47,303 nucleotides of DNA. It comes from a virus. Below, one piece after another: positions 26,558 to 44,477 of this stretch. Under the pieces are notes generated by a model. The model was not told the DNA's origin. It saw nothing but the letters and a program-made list of their open reading frames with translations, and ran no database searches. Where the stretch lies: IMG/VR virus record IMGVR_UViG_3300043425_000872, positions 1 to 47,303 of that record, one strand, 5' to 3'. A program made the position numbers and the translations under genes. The stretch's first letter is position 1, and the number at the start of each line of letters is the position of its first letter.

Positions 26558-26591
26558 GCTCCGCTACGTGGCAGGACTACCAGTGGCGACA

Positions 26592-26620
26592 GAGATAGCA
26601 CCGAGCGCTTGATCCGACAA
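26592..26620 (-). promoter_or_regulatory. Putative promoter of packaging/late operon
   Basis: Minus strand TTGTCG-N17-TATCTC preceded by GC, alphaproteobacterial style. Confidence 0.45.
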
Positions 26621-26726
26621 GGGTGCCTTGGAGATCCAAGGGACCACGCATCAGTTCGAGGGTGATCCACCGTTACTTGCAAAACAATGCAACAGAACAA
26701 TTCACACGTAAAACGCCGCAAGTAGC

Positions 26727-26807
26727 TCCGGACAGTCGGACACGGTGGACTGGACATACACCCCCCTCTCTAAGGGAGGGGTGTAATGTCCGGATGTCCG
26801 GATGTCC
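26727..26807. promoter_or_regulatory. Origin-like element: GGACA/TGTCC iterons flanking a GC-rich palindrome
   Basis: GGACA at 26730, 26738, 26752; ACACCCC..GGGGTGT core; ATGTCC(GG) at 26786, 26794, 26802. Confidence 0.65.
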
Positions 26808-27901
26808 TACTTGCGGGTCATGACACCCCCATCCAACTCAATAAGTCCGTCCAGAAGCAGCCGCTCCTTGGCCCGGCGGTACGCCTTCCCGACCGTGTCC
26901 GGCTTGTTGCCGTCACCGTGCGACGGGTGCGCCAAAAACCTCGCCCGCGCCACGTCCTCCGGCAGACTGTCCCCGCTATCCTCCAGCAGATCGAGGAGCA
27001 GCCCGGCCTTGCTTGAGCTGATGTCCACCAGCGCCTTTGTCTTGCTACCGTCCTTGGCCACCAGCGTCTGCAGGTTCTTGCCGTATGCGTCGGTGTAGCC
27101 CTCAAACACGAAGGGCACCAACTCGATGTCCACCGTAGCCCGGCCCTCCCCATCCTTGCGCTTGCGCTGGTGGACGCGCACCAACTGCTTATCCGACGCG
27201 CGGATCACCTCGAGCTGGCTGTCCACGTCGTTGAGCTTGGCGACGCTGCCGAGGTAGCTGCCGCCGCCCTTTGTGGCGTGATCCAGCACGAGGAACGAGA
27301 TGTCCAGTTCCGTCTCGCAACCCGTGGCGCCCTCCTCGATGATGTTGCGCAGGTTCTTGATGAAGGCGGACACGTTGGCCTTTTCATCGCCCGCAGAAGT
27401 TTGCGAGTAGGTGTCAATGACACACAGGACGCGGTACGAGCAGTCGCTGTCGATCATCGCGTCAAACACACCCACGTCCCAGTACTTGTCCGACGCAGTC
27501 GCACCATCATGCTCGTACCGGGTGAGGGCCATCAAAATGTTTCTCAGCTCTGCCGCGCCCTCATCCGTGTCCAGCGCCGGGCGCTCCTGCACCACAAACA
27601 GAAGGCCCCGATCCCCGGCGTCCGTCTCCAGCGCCGCGCGGCGCAGGTGCAGCGCATCGCCACCCTCGGCACCCAGATACAGCACCACACTCGGCTCCGT
27701 GGCCAGACCCATCCAGTCCCGCCCGGTGGACACCGCCGCAGCCATGCCCATCGCGATGAAGGTCTTGAAGCTCATCGACGGGCCGTACATCCAAGTGATG
27801 CCGCGCATCGGCACGAACCCCTCGACCACGTCACACCTCTCGCCACTAGTCTCCAACACCGCCAGCGGGTTGGCCCAGACGGGCTTGCCAGTAAAATCCA
27901 T
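26807..27901 (-). CDS. Stand-alone AAA_25/RepA-like ATPase with C-terminal wHTH-like end
   Basis: GPSMSFKT, LYLGAEG, VIDTYSQT, LVLDHATK; start reassigned to ATG 27901 (AAGGA RBS). Confidence 0.82.
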   Translation of the reverse strand: MDFTGKPVWANPLAVLETSGERCDVVEGFVPMRGITWMYGPSMSFKTFIAMGMAAAVSTGRDWMGLATEPSVVLYLGAEGGDALHLRRAALETDAGDRGLLFVVQERPALDTDEGAAELRNILMALTRYEHDGATASDKYWDVGVFDAMIDSDCSYRVLCVIDTYSQTSAGDEKANVSAFIKNLRNIIEEGATGCETELDISFLVLDHATKGGGSYLGSVAKLNDVDSQLEVIRASDKQLVRVHQRKRKDGEGRATVDIELVPFVFEGYTDAYGKNLQTLVAKDGSKTKALVDISSSKAGLLLDLLEDSGDSLPEDVARARFLAHPSHGDGNKPDTVGKAYRRAKERLLLDGLIELDGGVMTRK

Positions 27902-27995: not shown

Positions 27996-28045
27996 TTGAC
28001 CGCATCAACCGCCTGCTTTACTGGTACGTCATCAGCAACGGAGAC
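27996..28045 (+). promoter_or_regulatory. Early promoter P1 with ATCAGCAACG leader
   Basis: TTGACC-N17-TACTGG-N6-ATCAGCAACGGAGAC. Confidence 0.85.
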
Positions 28046-28050
28046 TACCA

Positions 28051-28545
28051 ATGACCGACCTCACCACCGCCCTTGAAGCCCACAAGCCCAACCTCGAAGC
28101 TCGTTTCATCAGCTTCACGACCGCCCGCTTCAACCGCCTCGTCGAGCAGTTCGGCCCTGCCCTGCGCGGCATCTACAACAGCGACCAGTACCGCAACTGG
28201 CAGGCCATCGCAGGCTGCACCGTCAGCCTCGGCGACCGCGTCAACAGCGAGTACGCTCTGGACGACGCGCGCCTCGCCGCCGCCGCCAAGCACTTCGCCG
28301 AAGAGACCGTCGCCGCGTGGGCCGCCAAGATCGAGGCCAAGCTGGGCGAGTTGGCCGACGCTGAAGTGCGCCACCTTGACGGCACCCGCTTCAACATCGT
28401 CGGCCGGAAGGGCGACCGCCGGGTCCGCATCGAGCAGGACATGATCGTGAACATCAGCAACAAAGGCACGCTGTTCAACCAGTTCCCGGCCCGCATCTAC
28501 GTGGACGGCAAGTTCACCAGCGCCGCCAAGTTTGCCGCACTCTGA
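28051..28545 (+). CDS. Early hypothetical protein, 164 aa
   Basis: First ORF after P1, strong GC3 bias. Confidence 0.85.
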   Translation: MTDLTTALEAHKPNLEARFISFTTARFNRLVEQFGPALRGIYNSDQYRNWQAIAGCTVSLGDRVNSEYALDDARLAAAAKHFAEETVAAWAAKIEAKLGELADAEVRHLDGTRFNIVGRKGDRRVRIEQDMIVNISNKGTLFNQFPARIYVDGKFTSAAKFAAL

Positions 28546-29705: not shown

Positions 29706-29755
29706 TTGACCCCAGTTAAGCACCCGGTTACTGGTACGTCATCAGCAACGGAGAC
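29706..29755 (+). promoter_or_regulatory. Early promoter P2 with ATCAGCAACG leader
   Basis: TTGACC-N17-TACTGG-N6-ATCAGCAACGGAGAC; near copy of P1. Confidence 0.85.
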
Positions 29756-29762
29756 TGCCCAC

Positions 29763-29978
29763 ATGAACTGGTTCCCCACCCTTAACGACGCGCTGCAGGC
29801 CGAGGGCCTCCTCGAGAGCTGGCCCCTCGGCGTCACCCTGAGCTACGGCGAGACGCGCGGCCTGTCCGCTGGCGGCCGCTGGATCAGCATATACCGCGAC
29901 GAGCAGGGCCGCTACGAGCGCCCCATCCACTACGCCACCAAGGTTCCCGAGACCTTCCCGCAGGAGTACCGCGCATGA
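29763..29978 (+). CDS. Early hypothetical protein, 71 aa
   Basis: Start reassigned to ATG 29763 after leader. Confidence 0.75.
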   Translation: MNWFPTLNDALQAEGLLESWPLGVTLSYGETRGLSAGGRWISIYRDEQGRYERPIHYATKVPETFPQEYRA

Positions 29979-33626: not shown

Positions 33627-33826
33627 CCACCACCGCATACGACGACCAATTCGCGCCAGAGCCCCCCGCACGCTCTGCGGGCTTCAGCACCCGCGAGATG
33701 GTGGACATGTTCAACGAGGGTCGGGCCGAGGAGCGCAAGCTGCTCGCGGCGTGGTTCCGCAAGCACGGCAGGCCCCAGATCGCAGACCAGATCGAGGCCG
33801 GGGAACACCTGAAACCACCCGCTTGA
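33623..33826 (+). CDS. Hypothetical protein, 67 aa
   Basis: GC3-rich; stop overlaps -35 of P3. Confidence 0.75.
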   Translation: MTTTAYDDQFAPEPPARSAGFSTREMVDMFNEGRAEERKLLAAWFRKHGRPQIADQIEAGEHLKPPA

Positions 33827-33871
33827 CAGGGCCCACGGGCGTCTGTACGCCCGCCTATCAGCAACGGAGAC
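33823..33871 (+). promoter_or_regulatory. Early promoter P3 with ATCAGCAACG leader
   Basis: TTGACA-N17-TACGCC-N5-ATCAGCAACGGAGAC. Confidence 0.8.
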
Positions 33872-33877
33872 ACCGAC

Positions 33878-34054
33878 ATGACAGACGAAGAGACCCTCGC
33901 CCTCCTGCGCAAGGTGGACGAGATGCGCGCCGAGCTGCGCCGCCTTGAGCCGGTCTTGAGCCGGGCCTGTGTGGAGTACGGCAAGCGCCGGGGCTGCACC
34001 GGCTTCCGCGACTTCCACGTGCGCAACGACGCCGCGCGGGCGGTGGCGGCATGA
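33878..34054 (+). CDS. Hypothetical protein, 58 aa
   Basis: Hand translation MTDEETLALLRKVDEMRAELRRLEPVLSRACVEYGKRRG... Confidence 0.75.
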   Translation: MTDEETLALLRKVDEMRAELRRLEPVLSRACVEYGKRRGCTGFRDFHVRNDAARAVAA

Positions 34055-36195: not shown

Positions 36196-38238
36196 GTGGC
36201 GGACGTGCAACCCATCTCACCCCAGCTCAGACGCGTGGAGGCCCCCTCGGCCTTGCGCGACCTGCAGGGCTGGCTCCTGTGGCGCTACGAGGATCAGGAG
36301 GGCACCGGCAAGCAGATCAAGGTGCCCTATTACGCCGACGGCGGTAAGCGCTACGGCGCCAACGGCAGTCCCAACGACCGGGCCAAGCTGGTCAAGTTCG
36401 CCGCCGCGCGCGACGCGGCCGCCAAGCGGGGCATGAGCGGCGTGGGGCTGGCCCTCATGCCCGAGTTCGGCATCACGGCCACGGACTTCGACTACTGCGT
36501 GGACGCGGACGGCAACGTGCCGGACGAGATCGCCCAGATCGCCGCGCGCACGTATGCCGAGTACAGCCCCAGCGGCGCGGGCGTGCGCGCCTTCAGCGTG
36601 GGCAGCTTCGGCAACAACAAGGCCCCCAAGACGGACGAGACGTACGGCTTCGAGACGTTCACGTCCTCGGGCTTCGTGACCTTCACGGGCCACGTGCTGC
36701 CGGTGTGCGAGTTGCTGGGCGAGGACGACACGGTCGCCGACAGCCCGGTCGTCAATGCCATCATCCAGCACCTGTGCGACACCCGCTTCGGTCCCCAGCG
36801 CCCAGCCGAGATCAGCGACGACTTCACCGCCGGGCACGAGAAGCCCCTCGGCCTGAGCCAGCCCCTCATGGAGCGCATCCTCGGCCACATCAGCCCGGAC
36901 ATCGGCCGTGACGAGTGGATCCGCGTAGGCATGGCCCTGCACCACGAGTGCGAGGGCGACGACACCGGCTTTGACCTGTGGGACACGTGGTCCGCAGACG
37001 GCGCCACCTACCCCGGCACGGAAGGCCTGCGGACCCAGTGGGACAGCTTCGACCGGCGCGTCGGGCGCGGCCACAAGCAGACGACCATGGCCAGCGTGAT
37101 CCAGATGGCCAAGAGGACCGGCTACGTCCACACGCGCCCCGATAACGCGAGCAGCCTCGAAGAGGTGATGGCCCGGGCCGAGGCCATCGCCGCTGCACCG
37201 CGTGCCGAGAGAGGCCGCTTTGGTCCGATACCGATCTACGACCTGTCCCTCCAGCCGCCGGGCGAGTGGCTGATCAAGGGCGTGGTGCCCGACGCGGAGC
37301 TGGTGGTGTTGTTCGGTGCCTCCGGCAGCGGCAAGACCTTCGTCGCCCTCGACATGGCCTTCGCCGTCGCGCAGGGGCTGCCGTGGCGCGGCCACCGGAC
37401 CAAGAAGGGCCGGGTGGTCATCATAGCCGCCGAGGGCGCTGGCGGCCTCACCAAGCGCGTCAGGGCCTACGCCAAGCACCACGACATCGACCTGCGGGAC
37501 GTGGCCATCGACGTGATCACCGCCGCGCCCAACTTTTTGCACGAGGAGGACATCGCCGAGGTGCTGGCCGAGATCAAGGCGCTGGGCGAAGTGGCCCTCG
37601 TCGTGGTCGACACCCTCGCGCAGGTCACGCCCGGGGCAAACGAGAACGGCGCGGAGGACATGGGCCGCGCGCTGGCCAACCTGCGCCTGATCCGCGAGAT
37701 GGCCGGGGCGACCGTCATGGCCGTCCACCACGCAGGCAAGGACGCCAGCAAGGGCTCGCGCGGCTGGTCCGGCATCAAGGCCGCAGCAGACGCCCAGATC
37801 GAGGTGATACGCCACGAGGACGGGCAGCGCGAGATCCACCTCGAGAAGATGAAGGACGGCGAGGACGGCCTGCGCTTCGGCTTCAGGCTGGAGATCGTCG
37901 AGCTGGGCGTGGACGCCGACGGCGACCTGCTCACGTCCTGCGTCGCCGTGGAGGCCGACCTGCCGGTGGCCAAGGCGGAGGACAAGCCCAGCCGGGGTGT
38001 CGTGCGCTACGGTGCCAACGAGCGCCACGTGCTGGAGGTGATCGAGAGCGAGTACGCCAGCGTGACCGACACGTCCGAGGCCCTGTTTGTAAAAAGATGC
38101 GCGGACCTGCTGCCCGCCCCGGATGCAGGCAAGCGCGACCAGCGCCTCTTCCTGATGCGCCGCGCCGTGCAGTCGTTGGTCAAGCGCAAGGACGGGCCGC
38201 TGGCTGTTGAGCATGGCCGTGTAATTTTTTGCACATAG
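36196..38238 (+). CDS. Primase-helicase (NrS-1-like prim-pol, PriCT-2, AAA_25)
   Basis: Start reassigned to GTG 36196; WLLWRY..KVPY, DFDYC, EYSPSG; DEWIRVGMALH; GASGSGKT, VVDTL, HHAGK. Confidence 0.92.
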   Translation: MADVQPISPQLRRVEAPSALRDLQGWLLWRYEDQEGTGKQIKVPYYADGGKRYGANGSPNDRAKLVKFAAARDAAAKRGMSGVGLALMPEFGITATDFDYCVDADGNVPDEIAQIAARTYAEYSPSGAGVRAFSVGSFGNNKAPKTDETYGFETFTSSGFVTFTGHVLPVCELLGEDDTVADSPVVNAIIQHLCDTRFGPQRPAEISDDFTAGHEKPLGLSQPLMERILGHISPDIGRDEWIRVGMALHHECEGDDTGFDLWDTWSADGATYPGTEGLRTQWDSFDRRVGRGHKQTTMASVIQMAKRTGYVHTRPDNASSLEEVMARAEAIAAAPRAERGRFGPIPIYDLSLQPPGEWLIKGVVPDAELVVLFGASGSGKTFVALDMAFAVAQGLPWRGHRTKKGRVVIIAAEGAGGLTKRVRAYAKHHDIDLRDVAIDVITAAPNFLHEEDIAEVLAEIKALGEVALVVVDTLAQVTPGANENGAEDMGRALANLRLIREMAGATVMAVHHAGKDASKGSRGWSGIKAAADAQIEVIRHEDGQREIHLEKMKDGEDGLRFGFRLEIVELGVDADGDLLTSCVAVEADLPVAKAEDKPSRGVVRYGANERHVLEVIESEYASVTDTSEALFVKRCADLLPAPDAGKRDQRLFLMRRAVQSLVKRKDGPLAVEHGRVIFCT

Positions 38239-38242
38239 GGGG

Positions 38243-38292
38243 TTGACGGGAAAAGCAGGCACTTTATATGGGGGTCATCAGCAACGAAGGAG
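38243..38292 (+). promoter_or_regulatory. Early promoter P4 with ATCAGCAACG leader
   Basis: TTGACG-N16-TATATG-N6-ATCAGCAACGAAGGAG. Confidence 0.82.
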
Positions 38293-38299
38293 TACCCCA

Positions 38300-38611
38300 A
38301 TGGCAACTGCACCCGTCACCGATTTCTCGTCCGCCATCGTTGATCGCCTCGGCGACATCAAGGCGCAGATCGCCGACCTCAAGAAGATCGAGGCCGACCT
38401 CGTGCAGCGCCTGATCGACAGCGAGCAGGACGCCATCGACGGCCGCGCCTACCGCGCCACCGTGTCGCAGGTGGCCGAGCGCCAGTCGCTCGACGCCAAG
38501 GCCGCCGAGACCAAGCTGCGCGCTCTGGGCGTGGACGGCCGCTGGTTCTCCAAGAACCAGAAGGTCGCCAAGGGCTACACGACCGTCAAGGTCGTGGCGC
38601 GGAAGGCCTGA
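38300..38611 (+). CDS. Hypothetical protein, 103 aa
   Basis: Start reassigned to ATG 38300; N-terminal coiled coil. Confidence 0.8.
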   Translation: MATAPVTDFSSAIVDRLGDIKAQIADLKKIEADLVQRLIDSEQDAIDGRAYRATVSQVAERQSLDAKAAETKLRALGVDGRWFSKNQKVAKGYTTVKVVARKA

Positions 38612-39518: not shown

Positions 39519-40753
39519 TGGCAGCACACGCAAAGCTCAGCCCTTCGGGGGCGCATCGCTGGATGCGCTGCGCGGGTAGCGTCATCCTTGAGGCGGAGTA
39601 CGCCGACGGTGGCAGCGCCTTCGCCGCCGAGGGCACCTGCGCCCACGAGCTGGCGGCAGCCGTCCTGACGGATCCCGAGTTCGTCATCCCCGTCGGTGAG
39701 ACCAAGACCGTGGACGGATACCCGATCAAGGTGACGCAGGACATGGCGGACCACGTCATGGACTACTGCAAGCTGGTCTGGGAGAGCGCGGAGCGGGCGA
39801 AGCTGCTGGTCGAGCAGTCCGTGCCCATCGGCCACCTGACCGGCGAGGACGGCGCGACAGGCACGAGCGACGCCATCATCATCGACTACGATCAGGAGGC
39901 CATCGAGGTCATCGACCTGAAGTACGGCGCGGGCGTGAAGGTCTACGCCGAGGACAACGAGCAGATGCAGATGTACGCCCTCGGGGCGCTGCACGAGCAC
40001 AGCCTGATCTCGGACTTTTCGTGGGTCACCATGATGATCCACCAGCCGCGCATGTACCACGTGGCGGAGTGGACGATCTCGACGGCGCAGCTTGAGGCGT
40101 TTGGTGAGGAGGTTAGTGAAGCGGCCCGCACCGTCGAGGACGCGGCCACCGCCGCATTGCTGTGCAACGTTGACACCGACGAGGGTTGGATCGGCGCGTA
40201 CCTCAACCCCGGCGAGAAGCAGTGCCGCTTCTGCAAGGCCAAGGCCACGTGCCCGGCCCTGCGCGAGGAGGTGATGGCCATCGCGGGCCCGGCCACGGCG
40301 CATGACTTCGCCGCGTTCATCCCTGACGCGCCCAACGCCGAGACAGGGGACAACTACCTGTCCATGGCCATGACCAAGGTTGATATGGTCGAGGCGTGGT
40401 GCAAGGCTGTGCGCGCAGAGACCGAGCGCCGCCTTCTGGCGGGCGAGACGGTGGACGGCTGGAAGCTGGTCGAGGGGCGCAAGGGCAACCGCGCGTGGGC
40501 CGACGAGGACGCCGCAGAGGAGATGTTCAAGAAGTCGTTCCGCCTGCGCGACGACGAGATGTACACCAAGAAACTGATCAGCCCGACGGCAGCCGAGAAG
40601 CTGCTGAAGGACACCCCCAAGCGCTTGAAGCGGGCCATGGACCTGACGACACGCGCGGAGGGCAAGCCATCCGTGGCTCCGGCCACTGATCTGCGGCCTG
40701 CACTGGCCGTCGCTAACCTTGCGGAAGAGTTCCGCATGACACTGGAGAACTGA
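39518..40753 (+). CDS. DUF2800 (Cas4-like PD-(D/E)XK) nuclease
   Basis: HAKLSPSGAHRWMRC, EGTCAHE, GTSDAII, IDLKYG, QMYALG, CRFCKAKATC. Confidence 0.9.
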   Translation: MAAHAKLSPSGAHRWMRCAGSVILEAEYADGGSAFAAEGTCAHELAAAVLTDPEFVIPVGETKTVDGYPIKVTQDMADHVMDYCKLVWESAERAKLLVEQSVPIGHLTGEDGATGTSDAIIIDYDQEAIEVIDLKYGAGVKVYAEDNEQMQMYALGALHEHSLISDFSWVTMMIHQPRMYHVAEWTISTAQLEAFGEEVSEAARTVEDAATAALLCNVDTDEGWIGAYLNPGEKQCRFCKAKATCPALREEVMAIAGPATAHDFAAFIPDAPNAETGDNYLSMAMTKVDMVEAWCKAVRAETERRLLAGETVDGWKLVEGRKGNRAWADEDAAEEMFKKSFRLRDDEMYTKKLISPTAAEKLLKDTPKRLKRAMDLTTRAEGKPSVAPATDLRPALAVANLAEEFRMTLEN

Positions 40754-40756
40754 ATT

Positions 40757-41374
40757 ATGGCAACTGAGACCCGGCGAGCAGTCACCCTGATGCTCAAGAA
40801 CAAGCGCCTCGGCTTCACCGATCTGGCCGAGCCCCGTTCGGTCAACGGCGGCAAGCCCGCCTACGGCGCGCGCGTCATCATCGACCCGACTGACCCTGAC
40901 GTGGCGCTGATCGACGCGGCCATCCGCGAAGTCGCCACCACGCAGTGGAAGGACAAGGCCGCCAACGTGCTGGAGATGCTGACCGAGAAGGGCCGCGTGG
41001 CCTTCCTCAAGAAGGACTACCGCAACACGAAGGGCGAGGTCCACAAGGGCTTCGAAGGCAAGTACAGCCTCGGCGTCAGCGCCCCGGCGGACAAGCAGCC
41101 CGGCTGCTTCGACAACGTGCCTGACGACGAAGGCAAGCCCGCCAAGCTCGACGAGGCGGGCATCCGCCGCAAGCTGTACAGCGGCTGCTACGCCAACGTG
41201 AAGGTGGAGATCTATCCCCTCCTGCGCGACGACGGCAACCGCATCGCCTGCGCAGTCCTCGGCGTGATGTTCGCGGGCCACGGCGAGGCCTTCGGCGGCG
41301 GCTCGGCTCCGGCCACGGCAGACGACTTCGCGGGCATGGCGCAGGCCGTGGCCGACGCAGAGGATCTGTTCTGA
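40757..41374 (+). CDS. DUF2815 single-stranded DNA-binding protein
   Basis: [31 protein letters not shown], acidic DLF tail. Confidence 0.85.
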
Positions 41375-41631
41375 TGGCGGGGCTTGGGCACAACGGAGAC
41401 GCGGATGACCGTCTCCGGCTCCTGATCGAGCGCATTGAGCGCCTCGAGGAGGAGAAGAAGGCCATCGGAGACGACATCAAGGACGTGTACCTTGAGGCGC
41501 GCTCTGTCGGCTACGACGCCAAGATCATGCGCCAGATCGTGCGTCTCAGGAAGATGAAGCCTGACGACCGCCACGAGATGGAGGCGATCCTCGACACATA
41601 CAAGAGGGCCCTTGGCCTCGACCTCGTGTAG
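41374..41631 (+). CDS. gapR: GapR/DUF2312 nucleoid-associated protein homolog
   Basis: [49 protein letters not shown]. Confidence 0.92.
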
Positions 41632-41640
41632 GGCTATACA

Positions 41641-41759
41641 GGGGGTGCGGGCGGCAGATGGAAGCTGCCCCCGCACCCTCCTTTCAGGCGGGCCGTGTCG
41701 CACGTGGGGTCTCTCCGCGTTGCTGATAACTTTGCGGCACGGCCCACCTGAGAGGAGGG
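41641..41759 (+). ncRNA. Two overlapping RNA hairpins; second stem buries the downstream RBS and its loop is antisense to the early leader
   Basis: Hairpin 41641-41680; 27-bp stem 41676-41702/41733-41759; loop contains CGTTGCTGAT at 41718-41727. Confidence 0.6.
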
Positions 41760-41764
41760 ACATC

Positions 41765-41983
41765 ATGAAACGCAAAGACACTGAGCAGGCCCTACGGGCC
41801 GAGCTGTCGCGCTACTCCAACATCACCTACACGATAGAGCCCGGGTCGAAGCACCCGCGCGTCGTGCTCCGCTGCGGCGACAAGATCCGCAAGCTGCACT
41901 ACAGCTCGACGCCCGTGGAGCGCCGCGCCGTGCTCAACATGGTCACGGACCTACGCCGCTGCGTACGCGAGGTGTTGTCGTGA
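41765..41983 (+). CDS. HicA-like (dsRBD-fold) protein, 72 aa
   Basis: Start reassigned to ATG 41765 (GGAGG RBS); YTIEPGSKHPRVVL..SSTP..RAVLN..DLRR. Confidence 0.65.
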   Translation: MKRKDTEQALRAELSRYSNITYTIEPGSKHPRVVLRCGDKIRKLHYSSTPVERRAVLNMVTDLRRCVREVLS

Positions 41984-43929
41984 CCACGCTTTTCCTCGAC
42001 ACTGAGACCTTCAGCCCCGTGCCGATCACGCACGGCACGCACGCCTATGCCGAGGAGGCCGAGGTAATCCTCGTCTCGCTGGCCGTGGACGACGACCCTG
42101 TGCAGGTGTGGGACACGTCTGACCCAGAGCGGCGCGGGAGCCAGCTTTCCTCCCTGCAGCACATGATCGACATCGCTGACGAGATCGTGATCCACAACAG
42201 CCATTTCGACCGCACAGTGCTGCGCCACTGCGGTGTAAATATTCCTGTGGATAAAATTACGGACACCATGGTGCTGGCCCTGCAGCACAGCCTGCCCGCC
42301 TCGCTGGGCATGCTCTGCGACGTCCTCGGCGTGCCGCAGGACAAGGCTAAAGACAAGGCGGGCAAGAAGCTGATACAGTTGCTCACCAAGCCCCGGCCGA
42401 AGAACGTGAAGCTGCGCCGGGCTACGCGGGAGACGCACCCTGATGAGTGGCGAGCCTTCATCGAATACGCCCGCCTCGATGTGGACGCTATGCGAGACGT
42501 ATATCGACGCCTGCCGCGATGGAATAATTGTGATCGTGAGCGGCACCTGTGGCTGGCAGACCAAGCGATTAATGACCGTGGTGTCGCCGTTGACGGAGAC
42601 CTCGCACGATCAGCTACAAGAGCTTTTGCTCGAACTTCACGAGCTCTGGCCGCTCGTACCGCCCGACTGACGAACGGCGCGGTCGCCAGCCTGACGCAGC
42701 GTCAGCGCATGATGGACTACCTCGCCACGCACCACAACTTCGCGCCGGACGACATGACCAAGGGCACCGTCACGGCCCTCCTCAAGGGCGATCTGGATCC
42801 GGTCGTGCGCGAGTTGCTGGAGATCCGCCAGCAGGCCTCGGCCACGTCGCCCGCCAAGTACGACGTCATCCTGAACGCCGCCTCGTCCGACGGTAGGCTG
42901 CGCGGCACGATCCAGTTCTGCGGAGCCTCGCGCACCGGGCGCGACGCCGGGCGCGTCTTCCAGCCCCAGAACCTGCCCCGGCCCACGCTGAAGCTGGAGC
43001 AGATCGAGGGCGGCATCGAGGCCATGAAGCTCGACTGCGAAGACCTGCTCTTCGACAACGTGAGCGAGCTGTGCTCCTCCGCCGTGCGCGGCTGCCTCGT
43101 GGCGGCCCCGGGGCGCAAGCTGGTCGTGGCCGACCTGTCCAACATCGAGGGGCGCGTGCTGGCGTGGCTGGCGGGCGAGGACTGGAAGGTGAAGGCCTTC
43201 TACGACTTCGACAGGGGCGTGGGGCACGACCTGTACAAGATCACTGCCGGGCGCATCCTCGACAAGGATCCCGGTGACATCACCAAGGACGAGCGGCAAC
43301 TGCAGGGCAAGGTGCCTGAGTTGGCGGGCGGCTACGGTGGCGGCATCGGCGCCTACCGCAAGATGGGCGGCGCTGTGTTCGACGCCATGACCGACGACGC
43401 GATCCAGACCATCGTGCATGCGTGGCGCAAGCAGCACCCGGCGACCGTGGCGCTGTGGTACGCGGTGGAGCGCGCGGCCAAGGCGGTGCTGGCCGACCCC
43501 ACCATCAGCACCGAGGTGCGGGGCCTGCGCTTCGACATGCACGGCACGTGGCTGCGCATCCGGCTGCCCTCGGGCCGCTACCTGAGCTACCCGAACGCGA
43601 CCATTGAGGACGGCCAGATCTGGTACGACGGCATCTGCCAGTTCACGAAGCAGTGGAAGCGCCTCGACACGTACTACGGCAAGCTGGTGGAGAACATCGT
43701 GCAGGCCATCGCGCGCGACATCTTCATGGGCGGCATGCTGCGCGCCGAGGGTGAGGGCTACCCCGTCGTGATCCGCGTGCATGACGAATTGATCTGCGAG
43801 ACGCCGGACGATCCCGCCTTTACCGTGGGGGCCCTGTCTGCCATCATGACGCGCGGCGAGAGCTGGTCCACGGGCCTGCCACTGGCCGCCGCCGGACACG
43901 AGATGTACCGCTATGCGAAGCTCGACTGA
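41980..43929 (+). CDS. polA: DNA polymerase family A (APSE-type)
   Basis: Exo LDTET, HNSHFDR; motif A ADLSNIEGR, B GKVPELAGGYG, C VHDE. Confidence 0.96.
   Translation: MTTLFLDTETFSPVPITHGTHAYAEEAEVILVSLAVDDDPVQVWDTSDPERRGSQLSSLQHMIDIADEIVIHNSHFDRTVLRHCGVNIPVDKITDTMVLALQHSLPASLGMLCDVLGVPQDKAKDKAGKKLIQLLTKPRPKNVKLRRATRETHPDEWRAFIEYARLDVDAMRDVYRRLPRWNNCDRERHLWLADQAINDRGVAVDGDLARSATRAFARTSRALAARTARLTNGAVASLTQRQRMMDYLATHHNFAPDDMTKGTVTALLKGDLDPVVRELLEIRQQASATSPAKYDVILNAASSDGRLRGTIQFCGASRTGRDAGRVFQPQNLPRPTLKLEQIEGGIEAMKLDCEDLLFDNVSELCSSAVRGCLVAAPGRKLVVADLSNIEGRVLAWLAGEDWKVKAFYDFDRGVGHDLYKITAGRILDKDPGDITKDERQLQGKVPELAGGYGGGIGAYRKMGGAVFDAMTDDAIQTIVHAWRKQHPATVALWYAVERAAKAVLADPTISTEVRGLRFDMHGTWLRIRLPSGRYLSYPNATIEDGQIWYDGICQFTKQWKRLDTYYGKLVENIVQAIARDIFMGGMLRAEGEGYPVVIRVHDELICETPDDPAFTVGALSAIMTRGESWSTGLPLAAAGHEMYRYAKLD
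42443..42670 (+). CDS. Candidate nested +1-frame ORF inside polA, 75 aa
   Basis: GGAG 10 nt before ATG; polA codons turn A/T-ending across the ORF; helical SHDQLQELLLELHELW. Confidence 0.45.
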   Translation: MSGEPSSNTPASMWTLCETYIDACRDGIIVIVSGTCGWQTKRLMTVVSPLTETSHDQLQELLLELHELWPLVPPD

Positions 43930-44219
43930 TGACCCCCGCAGGTAGGCTGCAGGACTACCTCAAGCACGTCGTGCAGAAGAGCGGCGGCCAGTACCGCAAG
44001 GTGCGCTGGGAGGGCCGCAGCGGCTGCCCGGACTGCTTCGTGTGGTGGACGTGGCCAGCCGCCGCGTTCATCGAGATCAAGGCCGAGGGCGACCGCCTGC
44101 GCAAGCTGCAGGTGCGCGAGATCGAGCGCATGGAGCACGACGGCGTGCCCGTCTTCGTCGCCCGCTCTGAGGCAGAGATCGACGAGATCGTGGCGCGCAT
44201 TCGGGGCTTGACGGGGTAA
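43929..44219 (+). CDS. VRR-NUC endonuclease
   Basis: GCPDCFV, FIEIKAEG, LQVREIERM. Confidence 0.9.
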   Translation: MTPAGRLQDYLKHVVQKSGGQYRKVRWEGRSGCPDCFVWWTWPAAAFIEIKAEGDRLRKLQVREIERMEHDGVPVFVARSEAEIDEIVARIRGLTG

Positions 44220-44257
44220 ACTACCTGCTTTACAGGTGCCTCATCAGCAACGGAGAC
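44208..44257 (+). promoter_or_regulatory. Early promoter P5 with ATCAGCAACG leader
   Basis: TTGACG-N17-TACAGG-N6-ATCAGCAACGGAGAC. Confidence 0.85.
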
Positions 44258-44261
44258 CACC

Positions 44262-44477
44262 ATGACCGACTACAGCCACCTCGACGCCCTTGAACTGAGC
44301 CTCTCGCACGAGCGCGAGCGCCTGCGTCTGGCCCGCAGCCAGCGCGAGATCCAGTACCGTGAGGTCTGGGTGCGGCAGTACGAGCGCGAGATCGCCAGCG
44401 AGCGCGAATTGCTGGGTCTCCCGCCGACCGACGCCATCATGGCGCTGGACGACATCCTTGCAGAACTGGAGGACTGA
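44262..44477 (+). CDS. Hypothetical protein, 71 aa
   Basis: First ORF after P5. Confidence 0.8.
   Translation: MTDYSHLDALELSLSHERERLRLARSQREIQYREVWVRQYEREIASERELLGLPPTDAIMALDDILAELED

Follow-up and report, generated by a model that had tools for sequence, protein, structure and literature searches.

The DNA between a GapR-like gene and a 72-aa gene that precedes polA (41612-41767 of the window, the window being the whole 47,303-nt stretch of viral DNA analysed here) may encode an antisense module placed in a 5' untranslated region (UTR) whose Shine-Dalgarno (SD) sequence is locked, and this module may occlude the ribosome-binding regions of the leader-tagged early mRNAs of this uncultured phage. 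Judged from sequence comparisons, the chances that this reading is right are about even. According to it, 41612-41767 would be the structured 5' end of the transcript carrying polA and, before it, the 72-aa gene. TTGGCC-N17-TATACA would act as a promoter of the host sigma-70 type and begin the RNA at ~41647. Folding would produce a short hairpin at the 5' end, followed by a stem of 27 positions in which the SD pairs with an anti-SD strand, so that the downstream gene would be translationally locked. The 30-nt loop would stay single-stranded. It would be antisense to the entire short 5' UTR of the other + strand transcripts of the phage, a UTR consisting of a 5'-terminal word AUCAGCAACG, an SD and a spacer. 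By pairing with the free 5' ends of the early mRNAs, the loop would cover their ribosome-binding regions, lowering translation of the first cistron in every leader-tagged operon and possibly of the whole operon via polarity. The SD lock would most likely be relieved by RNase III cutting the long stem, which would also free the stem-loop.

The element consists of two hairpins on the + strand. As seen by inspection of the window, the stem of hairpin 2 (41676-41702/41733-41759) has 27 positions, with 24 Watson-Crick pairs, two U.G pairs (41683.41752 and 41698.41737) and one C.A mismatch (C41689.A41746). The 5' arm (41676-41702) starts with the anti-SD CCCUCCUUUC, and the 3' arm (41733-41759) is closed by the Shine-Dalgarno GAGAGGAGGG (41750-41759), followed by the ATG of the 72-aa gene at 41765. 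The stem therefore buries the SD of this gene in a near-perfect double-stranded stem of at least ~20 bp, as in RNase III-activated SD-sequestering leaders. Hairpin 1 (41641-41680) has a G+C-rich stem-loop with a pyrimidine-rich tract behind it, and its full form overlaps the anti-SD arm of hairpin 2 by 2-5 nt. The original prediction, made from the letters of the window, had described both the 27-bp stem, with two G-U pairs and one mismatch, that pairs with the ribosome-binding site, and the upstream hairpin overlapping the anti-SD bases, and both are present. It had also proposed folding with shuffled controls, and RNAfold assigns 41632-41770 a folding energy of -84.6 kcal/mol (z = -7.1, reached by 0/200 shuffles), compared to -72.8 for the opposite (minus) strand, which folds less well. 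A stem so stable would block polA translation unless removed, and no remover is apparent in the sequence, a point that weighs against the antisense reading. No terminator is found 3' of hairpin 2, and a discrete small RNA would thus require processing. Using cmscan against Rfam, which holds a C4 family, no match at E ≤ 1 was obtained on 41612-41767 and only two chance matches elsewhere in 40500-42500; the element matches no Rfam family by sequence or structure, C4 antisense RNA included, and literature searches found no description of such an element.

Relatives were collected with a leader 15-mer and with polA searches. The two-hairpin element is located 5' of the polA module in 44/44 related viral-contig loci with enough upstream DNA, in which polA is 60-81% identical, and it is single-copy per genome and always positioned between the GapR-like gene and the polA module. 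Across 31 distinct elements, 98.5% of stem cells are paired, a value reached by 0/500 shuffles and compared to 39-55% of cells in slid controls, and 16/21 stem pairs covary, with changes on both sides (0/500 shuffles). The mismatch is conserved as well, being C.A in 21 elements, U.U in 10 and a standard pair in none. Similarly, an alignment of 11 sequences of hairpin 1 gives eight consensus pairs, seven of which show compensatory changes. The stem cells hold 25 G.U vs 4 A.C, pointing to an RNA of the + strand, and with the covariance model the + strand reaches 84.6 bits and the - strand 32.2. Four relatives are 99-100% complete, and one relative carries direct terminal repeats; tyrosine integrase (PF00589) was found neither in the window nor in the four 99-100% complete relatives. 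A nucleotide search of phage genomes returned coding similarity only, to Caulobacter RW-like and BPP-1-like phages, and a polA search of species genomes returned only distant (30-53%) enterobacterial and other matches, with no prophage copy and no host assignment.

Directly 5' of the element, the promoter P* (41612-41640, + strand) is composed of the -35 TTGGCC (41612-41617), a 17-nt spacer and the -10 TATACA (41635-41640), and overlaps the final codons and the stop codon of the GapR-like gene (41374-41631, + strand; PF10073, E 3e-34). Originally put forward as a possible promoter, it gains strong comparative support, as T[TAG]G[GA]NN-N17-TA[TG]ANN is present in 43/45 distinct related upstream regions with a spacer of 17 in every case, and in some relatives the -10 is shifted by 6 nt and the -35 is shifted along with it. 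We infer that the RNA exists and begins at the predicted start, ~41646-41648, within the 5' arm of hairpin 1. A promoter-dependent switch between the two hairpins was considered and rejected, as accessibility changes only at the last 3-4 SD bases (predicted unpaired probability 0.3-0.7 in read-through RNA vs 0.00-0.01 for the 41647 start), which is too small a change.

The 72-aa gene behind the SD-locking stem (41765-41983, + strand) has a stop overlapping the start of polA (41980-43929, + strand), which encodes a family A DNA polymerase with a 3'-5' exonuclease domain, and this overlap suggests that polA is translationally coupled to the 72-aa gene. The product had been labelled HicA-like, a label that finds no confirmation in sequence searches and an ambiguous picture in structural comparison. 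The 72-aa protein has no Pfam match even at E ≤ 10, the HicA family PF07927 included, and no PDB sequence match; viral contigs searched with it gave no close relatives, and its Atlas neighbours are unnamed viral clusters. Its model (pLDDT 88.7) shows the order alpha-beta-beta-beta-alpha, as in the HicA/dsRBD-like fold, and His30 is invariant in 8 homologues. The HicA chains 5yrz_D, 6g26_E, 4p78_D and 1whz_A match the model at Z 4.6-5.8, tied with many unrelated folds, and a Foldseek search of the PDB had no match with an E below 0.03. Relatives differ in the gene that follows the element.

The putative targets of the loop share a leader word. Exact copies of ATCAGCAACG are found five times on the + strand (28031, 29741, 33857, 38277 and 44243) and once on the - strand, in the hairpin 2 loop, and allowing up to one mismatch gives 17 matches vs 3.1 expected (0/100 shuffles). 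Each of the five + strand copies makes up the first 10 nt that follow a TTGAC-type promoter. In early promoter 1 (27996-28053), TTGACC (27996-28001) is followed by the leader at 28031-28040, the SD GGAG and an ATG at 28051. The same arrangement of -35, leader and ATG is seen in early promoter 2 (29706-29765; TTGACC 29706-29711, leader 29741-29750, ATG 29763), early promoter 3 (33823-33880; TTGACA 33823-33828, leader 33857-33866, ATG 33878), early promoter 4 (38243-38302; TTGACG 38243-38248, leader 38277-38286, ATG 38300) and early promoter 5 (44208-44264; TTGACG 44208-44213, leader 44243-44252, ATG 44262). In general, the leader word starts 34-36 nt past the first -35 base in 86/94 distinct sites and lies 20-29 nt upstream of the start codon. 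The element and the five target leaders are all on the + strand, 2.5 to 13.7 kb apart; the operon of early promoter 4 runs into the element, and its 5' UTR has the fullest complementarity to the loop among the five. Five promoters would make targets and one would make the regulator, leaving the stoichiometry of silencing uncertain, which also weighs against the antisense reading.

The 30-nt loop (41703-41732, + strand) is antisense to the whole early 5' UTR. At 41718-41727 it carries CGTTGCTGAT, the exact complement of the leader ATCAGCAACG and hereafter the anti-leader word (CGUUGCUGAU), together with GUCUC and UCC, just as the original prediction had reported, and its 5' part (41703-41717) is complementary to the SD and spacer of the leaders. 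The loop is thus complementary to both the 5' terminus and the ribosome-binding site of its targets, as in antisense RNA of the IS10 RNA-OUT type. Duplexes of the loop with the 5' UTRs of the five operons, computed with RNAduplex, reach -25.8 to -33.2 kcal/mol, compared to -12.2 ± 2.9 kcal/mol for shuffled loops against the 28031 leader (0/1000 as good). RNAcofold of the UTR and leader was left out, as pairing of a loop with a linear strand is beyond its model. The anti-leader word is predicted to be unpaired with a probability of 0.72 in the window, and of 0.63-0.75 vs 0.37 for the element. The part of the loop matching the SD and spacer is predicted to lie inside a small internal helix, which must therefore open for full pairing with the leaders.

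Loop and leaders change together in related phages. Six leader/loop word pairs were found, namely ATCAGCAACG/CGTTGCTGAT, ACCAACAACG/CGTTGTTGGT, ATCAAGCAAG/[CT]TTGCTTGAT (for example ATCAAGCAAG/CTTGCTTGAT), ATCAGCAACA/TGTTGCTGAT, CTCAGCAACA/CGTTGCTGAG and ATCAACAACG/CGTTGTTGAT, and each of the five non-ancestral words occupies a single clade or a single row in the polA tree, giving five switches. A loop that pairs in trans with all early leaders had been proposed originally, with co-variation in related phages carrying other leader words as a check, and the proposal passes it. The co-variation was judged from promoter-anchored leader tables and a cross matrix, in which the well-separated words ATCAGCAACG, ACCAACAACG and ATCAAGCAAG have cognate runs of 8-10 nt and cross runs of 4-7 nt, and one-letter word variants are not separated. 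A first control, counting any loop-antisense 9-mer on the + strand, proved non-discriminating in these G+C-rich genomes. Outside the word, the loop is complementary to the SD and spacer of the leaders in 20/20 phages, with ≤5% of shuffles as good. Matched variation of loop and target among related phages is also seen in P1 c4 and P4 CI. A possible resemblance of the leader word to a stretch of 16S rRNA was set aside, as the other word groups would lack it. In roughly half of the relatives, a leader-like word adjoins the AUG and pairs in cis with the loop, and the flanks of this pairing covary (AAC/GTT, ACAC/GTGT and CCTTC/GAAGG), indicating a role of the loop in RNA-RNA pairing with start regions. 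The window and the ACCAAC group keep the complementarity to the leaders without a leader-like word near the element. We infer the direction and outcome of the pairing in vivo, in which the loop would act on the leaders and repress their translation.

The opposite direction is unlikely, although it has some appeal: the 5' ends of abundant early mRNAs could dock on the loop and so allow the 72-aa gene and polA to be translated, with the stem destabilised, a loop-to-AUG pseudoknot broken or a nuclease guided to the site. The very stable stem keeps the SD hidden and requires some release mechanism, and tying polymerase synthesis to early transcription would be biologically sensible. In addition, leaders acting in trans could out-compete the cis pairing of the loop with the AUG-side word seen in about half of the relatives, yet the window has no such cis word. 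The geometry is unfavourable as well, since the leader 5' terminus ends on the SD-arm side of the loop and cannot invade the SD arm. Beyond the part that pairs with the loop, complementarity between the mRNAs and the anti-SD arm is slight and is equalled by 2-40% of shuffles, with four of the five leaders within the shuffle range and the fifth at 2%, and there is no contiguous run; the complementarity of the trigger does not continue into the stem as in a toehold. The toehold-like opening of the stem by leaders, offered in the original prediction as an alternative, is not supported, and a loop duplex of 10-25 bp alone cannot melt a G+C-rich stem of 27 positions.

Somewhat less probable still, the element could be only an SD lock and an RNase III-type site of processing and translational control, the likeness of the loop to the leaders being a by-product of a cis pseudoknot formed with a leader-like start region or of descent from a duplicated leader. 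A stem of 21-27 bp whose single mismatch is conserved as C.A or U.U would suit such a site, and many relatives show the cis pairing with covarying flanks. Furthermore, SD-locking hairpins occur without an anti-leader, both in relative L167, which keeps the SD-locking stem without the word or the promoter, and in Caulobacter phage RW, which has hairpin 1 and a small SD-hiding hairpin without an anti-leader loop. The stem of L167 implies that the stem has a function of its own. However, the trans complementarity is kept and switched along with the leaders in groups lacking the cis word (the window, ACCAACAACG and ATCAAGCAAG groups), and an unselected relic would neither follow five separate word changes nor keep its complementarity to the SD and spacer despite insertions and deletions.

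Co-variation of the words alone is no proof of RNA pairing, because in double-stranded DNA a word cannot be told apart from its reverse complement. It is improbable, nonetheless, that ATCAGCAACG is a duplex binding site for a phage or host protein at +1 to +10 of the early promoters, with 41718-41727 as a sixth, inverted copy. The word does overlap the transcription start, where operators are often placed, but in every case the sixth copy is antisense and falls in a part of a covarying RNA hairpin that stays unpaired. Such a site would also leave unexplained the match of the remaining loop to SD and spacer, the covariation of the cis-partner flanks with the loop flanks and the G.U pairs of the stem, which occur on the + strand only. 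Finally, the copy can hardly be the leader of a sixth, leftward promoter, the counter-case named in the original prediction, although GGAG and a GTG in an open frame follow it on the minus strand, or part of an inverted repeat forming a cruciform or origin among the adjoining replication genes: the minus-strand copy has no TTGAC/TTGCA 34-36 nt upstream in the window or relatives and no -35/-10, its start codon is not kept in relatives inspected by eye, its frame is antisense to the well-supported GapR-like gene, the arm of an origin need not be an SD, and the G.U bias points to RNA.

Compared to known systems, the antisense module may be a new variant of the antisense control seen in IS10 RNA-OUT and P1 c4. 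Antisense control by IS10 RNA-OUT/RNA-IN was reportedly described by Kittle, Simons, Lee and Kleckner in 1989, and, like the element, RNA-OUT displays its loop on a long stable stem with conserved imperfections, and its loop pairing starts at the extreme 5' end of the mRNA and covers the ribosome-binding site. RNA-OUT is encoded on the opposite strand of a single target and is fully complementary to it, whereas the element lies at a different place on the same strand, would be directed at five separate transcripts via a common UTR of 20-25 nt and is itself the 5' UTR of the mRNA whose SD it locks. The c4 antisense RNA of P1/P7 and the CI RNA of P4, said to have been reported by Citron and Schuster in 1990 and by Ghisotti et al. 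in 1992, are likewise phage-encoded stem-loops from a longer transcript with loops complementary to the ribosome-binding regions of their own mRNAs, and their matched loop/target changes give related phages distinct specificities. In contrast, the role of c4 and CI is in the lysogenic immunity of temperate elements, and RNase P/PNPase release them from a precursor. For the element, no tyrosine integrase was found in the four complete relatives, terminal repeats are seen in one relative and nothing tRNA-like was noticed, and its putative targets are the 5' ends of every early operon, with the regulator doubling as an SD lock. The lambda N leader and the T7 early intercistronic sites are RNase III-processed leaders that sequester an SD; they share with the element a stem of at least 20 bp with a conserved internal mismatch, directly before a phage gene and with the SD buried, but lack a loop directed against further transcripts. 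Riboregulators of the synthetic toehold and loop-mediated kinds, reportedly described by Green et al. in 2014, also combine an SD-hiding hairpin with a short RNA trigger in programmable, orthogonal sequence pairs, yet the trigger of a toehold riboregulator must invade the stem, whereas the complementarity of the element stops at the loop.

Temporal control in phages that use the host RNA polymerase is usually credited to proteins, such as repressors, anti-sigma factors and antiterminators. The matched loop/leader change in related phages suggests a new RNA-based way to coordinate early gene expression, and the element may add a purely RNA-based layer, in which a common 5' tag is read by one antisense loop tied physically to the polymerase operon, perhaps serving as the master switch or timing circuit envisaged in the original prediction. 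The comparative signal is unusually clean, combining a covarying structure, five matched switches and complementarity over the SD and spacer. If true, a regulon-wide, trans-acting 5'-UTR antisense mechanism would be added to phage biology, natural orthogonal loop/leader pairs would become available for synthetic biology, and the word groups may act as compatibility classes between related phages. It could further be speculated, at long but not negligible odds, that the tag and anti-tag are phage-wide. All early or middle transcripts made by host RNA polymerase would then share the 20-25 nt UTR, and the hairpin from the polymerase operon would read it, shutting early translation as replication begins, with the six word pairs, orthogonal by nature, deciding silencing between co-infecting relatives. 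Lytic phages would thereby have a code of exclusion or compatibility based on RNA, and the pairs would form a natural library of orthogonal riboregulators.

In the 47.3-kb viral contig (completeness estimate 79%; G+C 65.6%), the minus strand encodes structural and packaging genes up to ~27.9 kb, and all genes from 28 kb on lie on the plus strand. The latter begin with small ORFs, a C5 methylase, a primase-helicase and a DUF2800 nuclease, followed by an Enc34-type ssDNA-binding protein, a GapR-like protein, a 133-nt intergenic region at the element (41612-41767), a 72-aa ORF, a family A DNA polymerase (polA) and a VRR-NUC nuclease. Among cultured phages, the Caulobacter RW-like group comes closest, with a polA identity of 58.5%. 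As originally predicted, a long stem buries the SD of the downstream gene: its arms (41676-41702/41733-41759) join through 24 Watson-Crick and two U.G pairs, interrupted by a single C.A mismatch, and the 3' arm terminates in GAGAGGAGGG, 5 nt from the ATG at 41765. The predicted folding energy of the region is -84.6 kcal/mol (z = -7.1), and the minus strand comes out 12 kcal/mol poorer. The 30-nt loop holds CGTTGCTGAT (41718-41727), whose claimed complementarity to five early leaders is exact; its complement ATCAGCAACG has precisely five plus-strand copies in the window (28031, 29741, 33857, 38277 and 44243). The loop holds the sole minus-strand copy, with no -35/-10 upstream. All five plus-strand copies follow the pattern TTGAC[CAG]-(28-29 nt, with a weak TA-type -10)-ATCAGCAACG-(G)GAG...-ATG, the word starting 34-35 nt past the first -35 base and 19-23 nt ahead of the start codon.

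Seven one-mismatch leader words also lie in minus-strand coding regions of the window (5684, 11466, 12544, 12610, 15001, 18058 and 23265), two of them within a repeat protein; their number is above that in shuffles, and the excess is probably an effect of codon usage and repeats. A terminator-like hairpin with a T-run (38201-38229) stands immediately 5' of early promoter 4 (38243), so that the plus-strand operons look mutually insulated. On the minus strand, the packaging/structural operon opens (26560-26810) with a long leader that lacks ATCAGCAACG, and 5' of this leader GGACATCC repeats and a palindrome, ACACCCCTCCC...GGGGGGTGT, adjoin the stop of an AAA_25 gene.

Relatives were gathered from viral contigs via the leader 15-mer and via polA, and in them the stretch from the GapR-like gene to the polA module is organised as in the window. 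Of the loci whose polA is 60-81% identical, every one with ~350 nt or more of DNA upstream has the element (44 of 44), and so does a 58.8-kb contig from an NCBI metagenome assembly. Neither the prophage-like contigs at 49% identity nor Caulobacter phage RW contain it, RW having just hairpin 1 and a small hairpin that hides the SD; Rfam gave no match at the element. A covariance model of 31 distinct copies found exactly one match per locus, even where an extra gene shifts the element ~700 nt upstream of polA. In these copies, stem pairing holds in 98.5% of cells and two-sided changes occur at 16 of 21 pairs, values reached by none of the shuffles, with slid controls giving 39-55%; the covariation counts ignore kinship, apart from the word groups mapped on a quick tree. 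Hairpin 1 (41641-41680) covaries too. An RNA made from the plus strand is indicated by the excess of G.U over A.C cells in the stem (25 versus 4) and by the model score (84.6 bits on the plus strand versus 32.2 on the minus strand). One stem position (41689/41746) is never a standard pair (C.A in 21 copies, U.U in 10), and may be a determinant or antideterminant for a double-strand-specific nuclease or protein.

The check proposed with the original prediction was whether loop and leader change together, and they do: relatives with an altered loop word carry correspondingly altered leader words at their promoters. The pairs, loop before leader, are CGTTGTTGGT and ACCAACAAC[GA] (loci L130, L132, L134, L138-L141 and L192), [CT]TTGCTTGAT and ATCAAGCAAG (L171, L175, L179 and L198; with T, a G.U pair results), TGTTGCTGAT and ATCAGCAACA (L181, L183, L184 and L187), CGTTGCTGAG and CTCAGCAACA (L189), and CGTTGTTGAT and ATCAACAACG (L170). 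On a quick polA tree, each variant word forms one clade (L170 being a single row) among ATCAGCAACG rows, which amounts to five matched switches. When loops and leaders were crossed, cognate sets shared 8-10 contiguous complementary bases (about -13 to -19 kcal/mol), compared with 4-7 bases for non-cognate combinations of the three well-separated words (ATCAGCAACG, ACCAACAACG and ATCAAGCAAG); one-letter variant words were not resolved from ATCAGCAACG. The word starts 34-36 nt past the first -35 base at 86 of 94 distinct leader sites and is followed by the start codon after 20-29 nt at 91 of 94, which makes it the predicted 5' end of a UTR that is very short. Around the -35 of relatives' early promoters, two or three TTGCA(A/C) words occur in direct and inverted orientation (L198:85-135, L175:295-345 and L183:11379-11412), and they are possible operators for a protein regulator acting on the same promoters.

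Co-variation of the word alone would be equally compatible with a protein site in duplex DNA, yet three results favour RNA. Firstly, the remainder of the loop, beyond the word, matches the SD and spacer of the leaders in antisense, with at most 5% of shuffles equalling it in 20 of 20 phages tested and 0 of 300 in nine of the 20, and the match persists though the spacing from word to CUCC varies. Possible duplexes between the whole loop of the window and its five UTRs reach -26 to -33 kcal/mol (shuffled loops against the 28031 leader, -12.2 +/- 2.9 kcal/mol), the 38277 UTR being nearly identical to the loop's reverse complement. Secondly, about half of the relatives carry a leader-like (G)(T)TATCAGCA in the SD-AUG spacer of the gene that follows the element (for example, L125:6791-6805, L143:6882-6900 and L181:7986-8002), which the window lacks. 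Its complementarity to the loop spans 9-12 nt in most copies and 7 nt in L185, and its flanks covary with the loop flanks (AAC/GTT, ACAC/GTGT and CCTTC/GAAGG). This covariation is direct evidence for RNA-level pairing of the loop with start regions, and the cis pairing is predicted to fold into an H-type pseudoknot covering the start codon. Thirdly, the word is predicted to be unpaired in all groups (0.63-0.75 versus 0.37 for the whole element). Lineages without the cis word still keep the trans complementarity, which is thus not a by-product of cis pairing. The proposed toehold-like opening of the stem by leaders is not supported, as the leader 5' end abuts the SD arm and, in the mRNA past the loop-pairing stretch, complementarity to the anti-SD arm is slight, with no contiguous run.

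The promoter noted before the element is well conserved: 43 of 45 distinct upstream regions combine a -35-like hexamer (TTGGCN or T[AG]GACT) with a -10 (TA[TG]ANN), always 17 nt apart, the -10 ending 1-6 nt upstream of hairpin 1. In five regions the -10 is shifted 6 nt downstream, and a different -35 hexamer, also 6 nt downstream, preserves the spacing. The Leu/Ile codon giving the TT of the -35 has T as third base in nearly all copies, in genomes with about 85-90% G+C at third codon positions. We read this conservation as pointing to a real sigma-70-type promoter, from which transcripts would start within the 5' arm of hairpin 1, near 41647. In RNA started there, the predicted unpaired probability of the SD is 0.00-0.01, and in read-through RNA its final three or four bases reach 0.3-0.7; this difference was judged too small for a start-dependent switch between hairpins 1 and 2.

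A tie of the element to a HicA-like gene is not supported, as relatives carry varied proteins, or polA directly, behind it. Apart from the 72-aa protein of the window (41765-41983, plus strand) and close kin, the slot holds a 97-aa protein ending in ...NINIGRVSEILHGKR (L017:5960-6253), a 214-225-aa protein starting with MIKAIETRYKGY (L157:339-983), a 243-aa protein (L192:7273-8004) or a 139-aa protein (L167:6274-6693), none with a Pfam match, suggesting that the element controls a variable cassette. Sequence searches found no HicA signal in the 72-aa protein. Its confident model (pLDDT 88.7) is alpha-beta-beta-beta-alpha with invariant G27, H30, P31 and R32, and HicA chains are among many tied weak structural matches (Z 4.6-5.8). 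Seven close homologues occur in public data (76-99% identical), two on 58-kb contigs. SD-hiding hairpins without the anti-leader word occupy the same genomic position at L167:6184-6265 and, in Caulobacter phage RW, at L204:3936-4000. The L167 copy keeps the stem without promoter or word, so the SD lock can exist apart from the anti-leader and is probably older than the antisense loop.

Comparison among relatives establishes that the RNA-coding element is structured and conserved, that a conserved promoter of its own precedes it, that a long stem buries an SD, and that the loop changes in step with the early 5' UTRs. Its most likely mode of action, as inferred from these sequences, is in trans: the loop would pair with the free 5' ends of leader-tagged mRNAs and occlude their ribosome-binding regions. 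IS10 RNA-OUT with RNA-IN has the same geometry, and the P1/P7 c4 and P4 CI RNAs follow the same logic, including matched specificity variants. The stem, 21-27 bp with one conserved mismatch, resembles an RNase III substrate, and it could be conjectured that cleavage would free the SD and also release the stem-loop. A tyrosine integrase is absent from four complete relatives and one relative has terminal repeats, making a role in the lytic programme more likely than one in lysogenic immunity; early translation would be damped or shut as the polymerase operon comes on.
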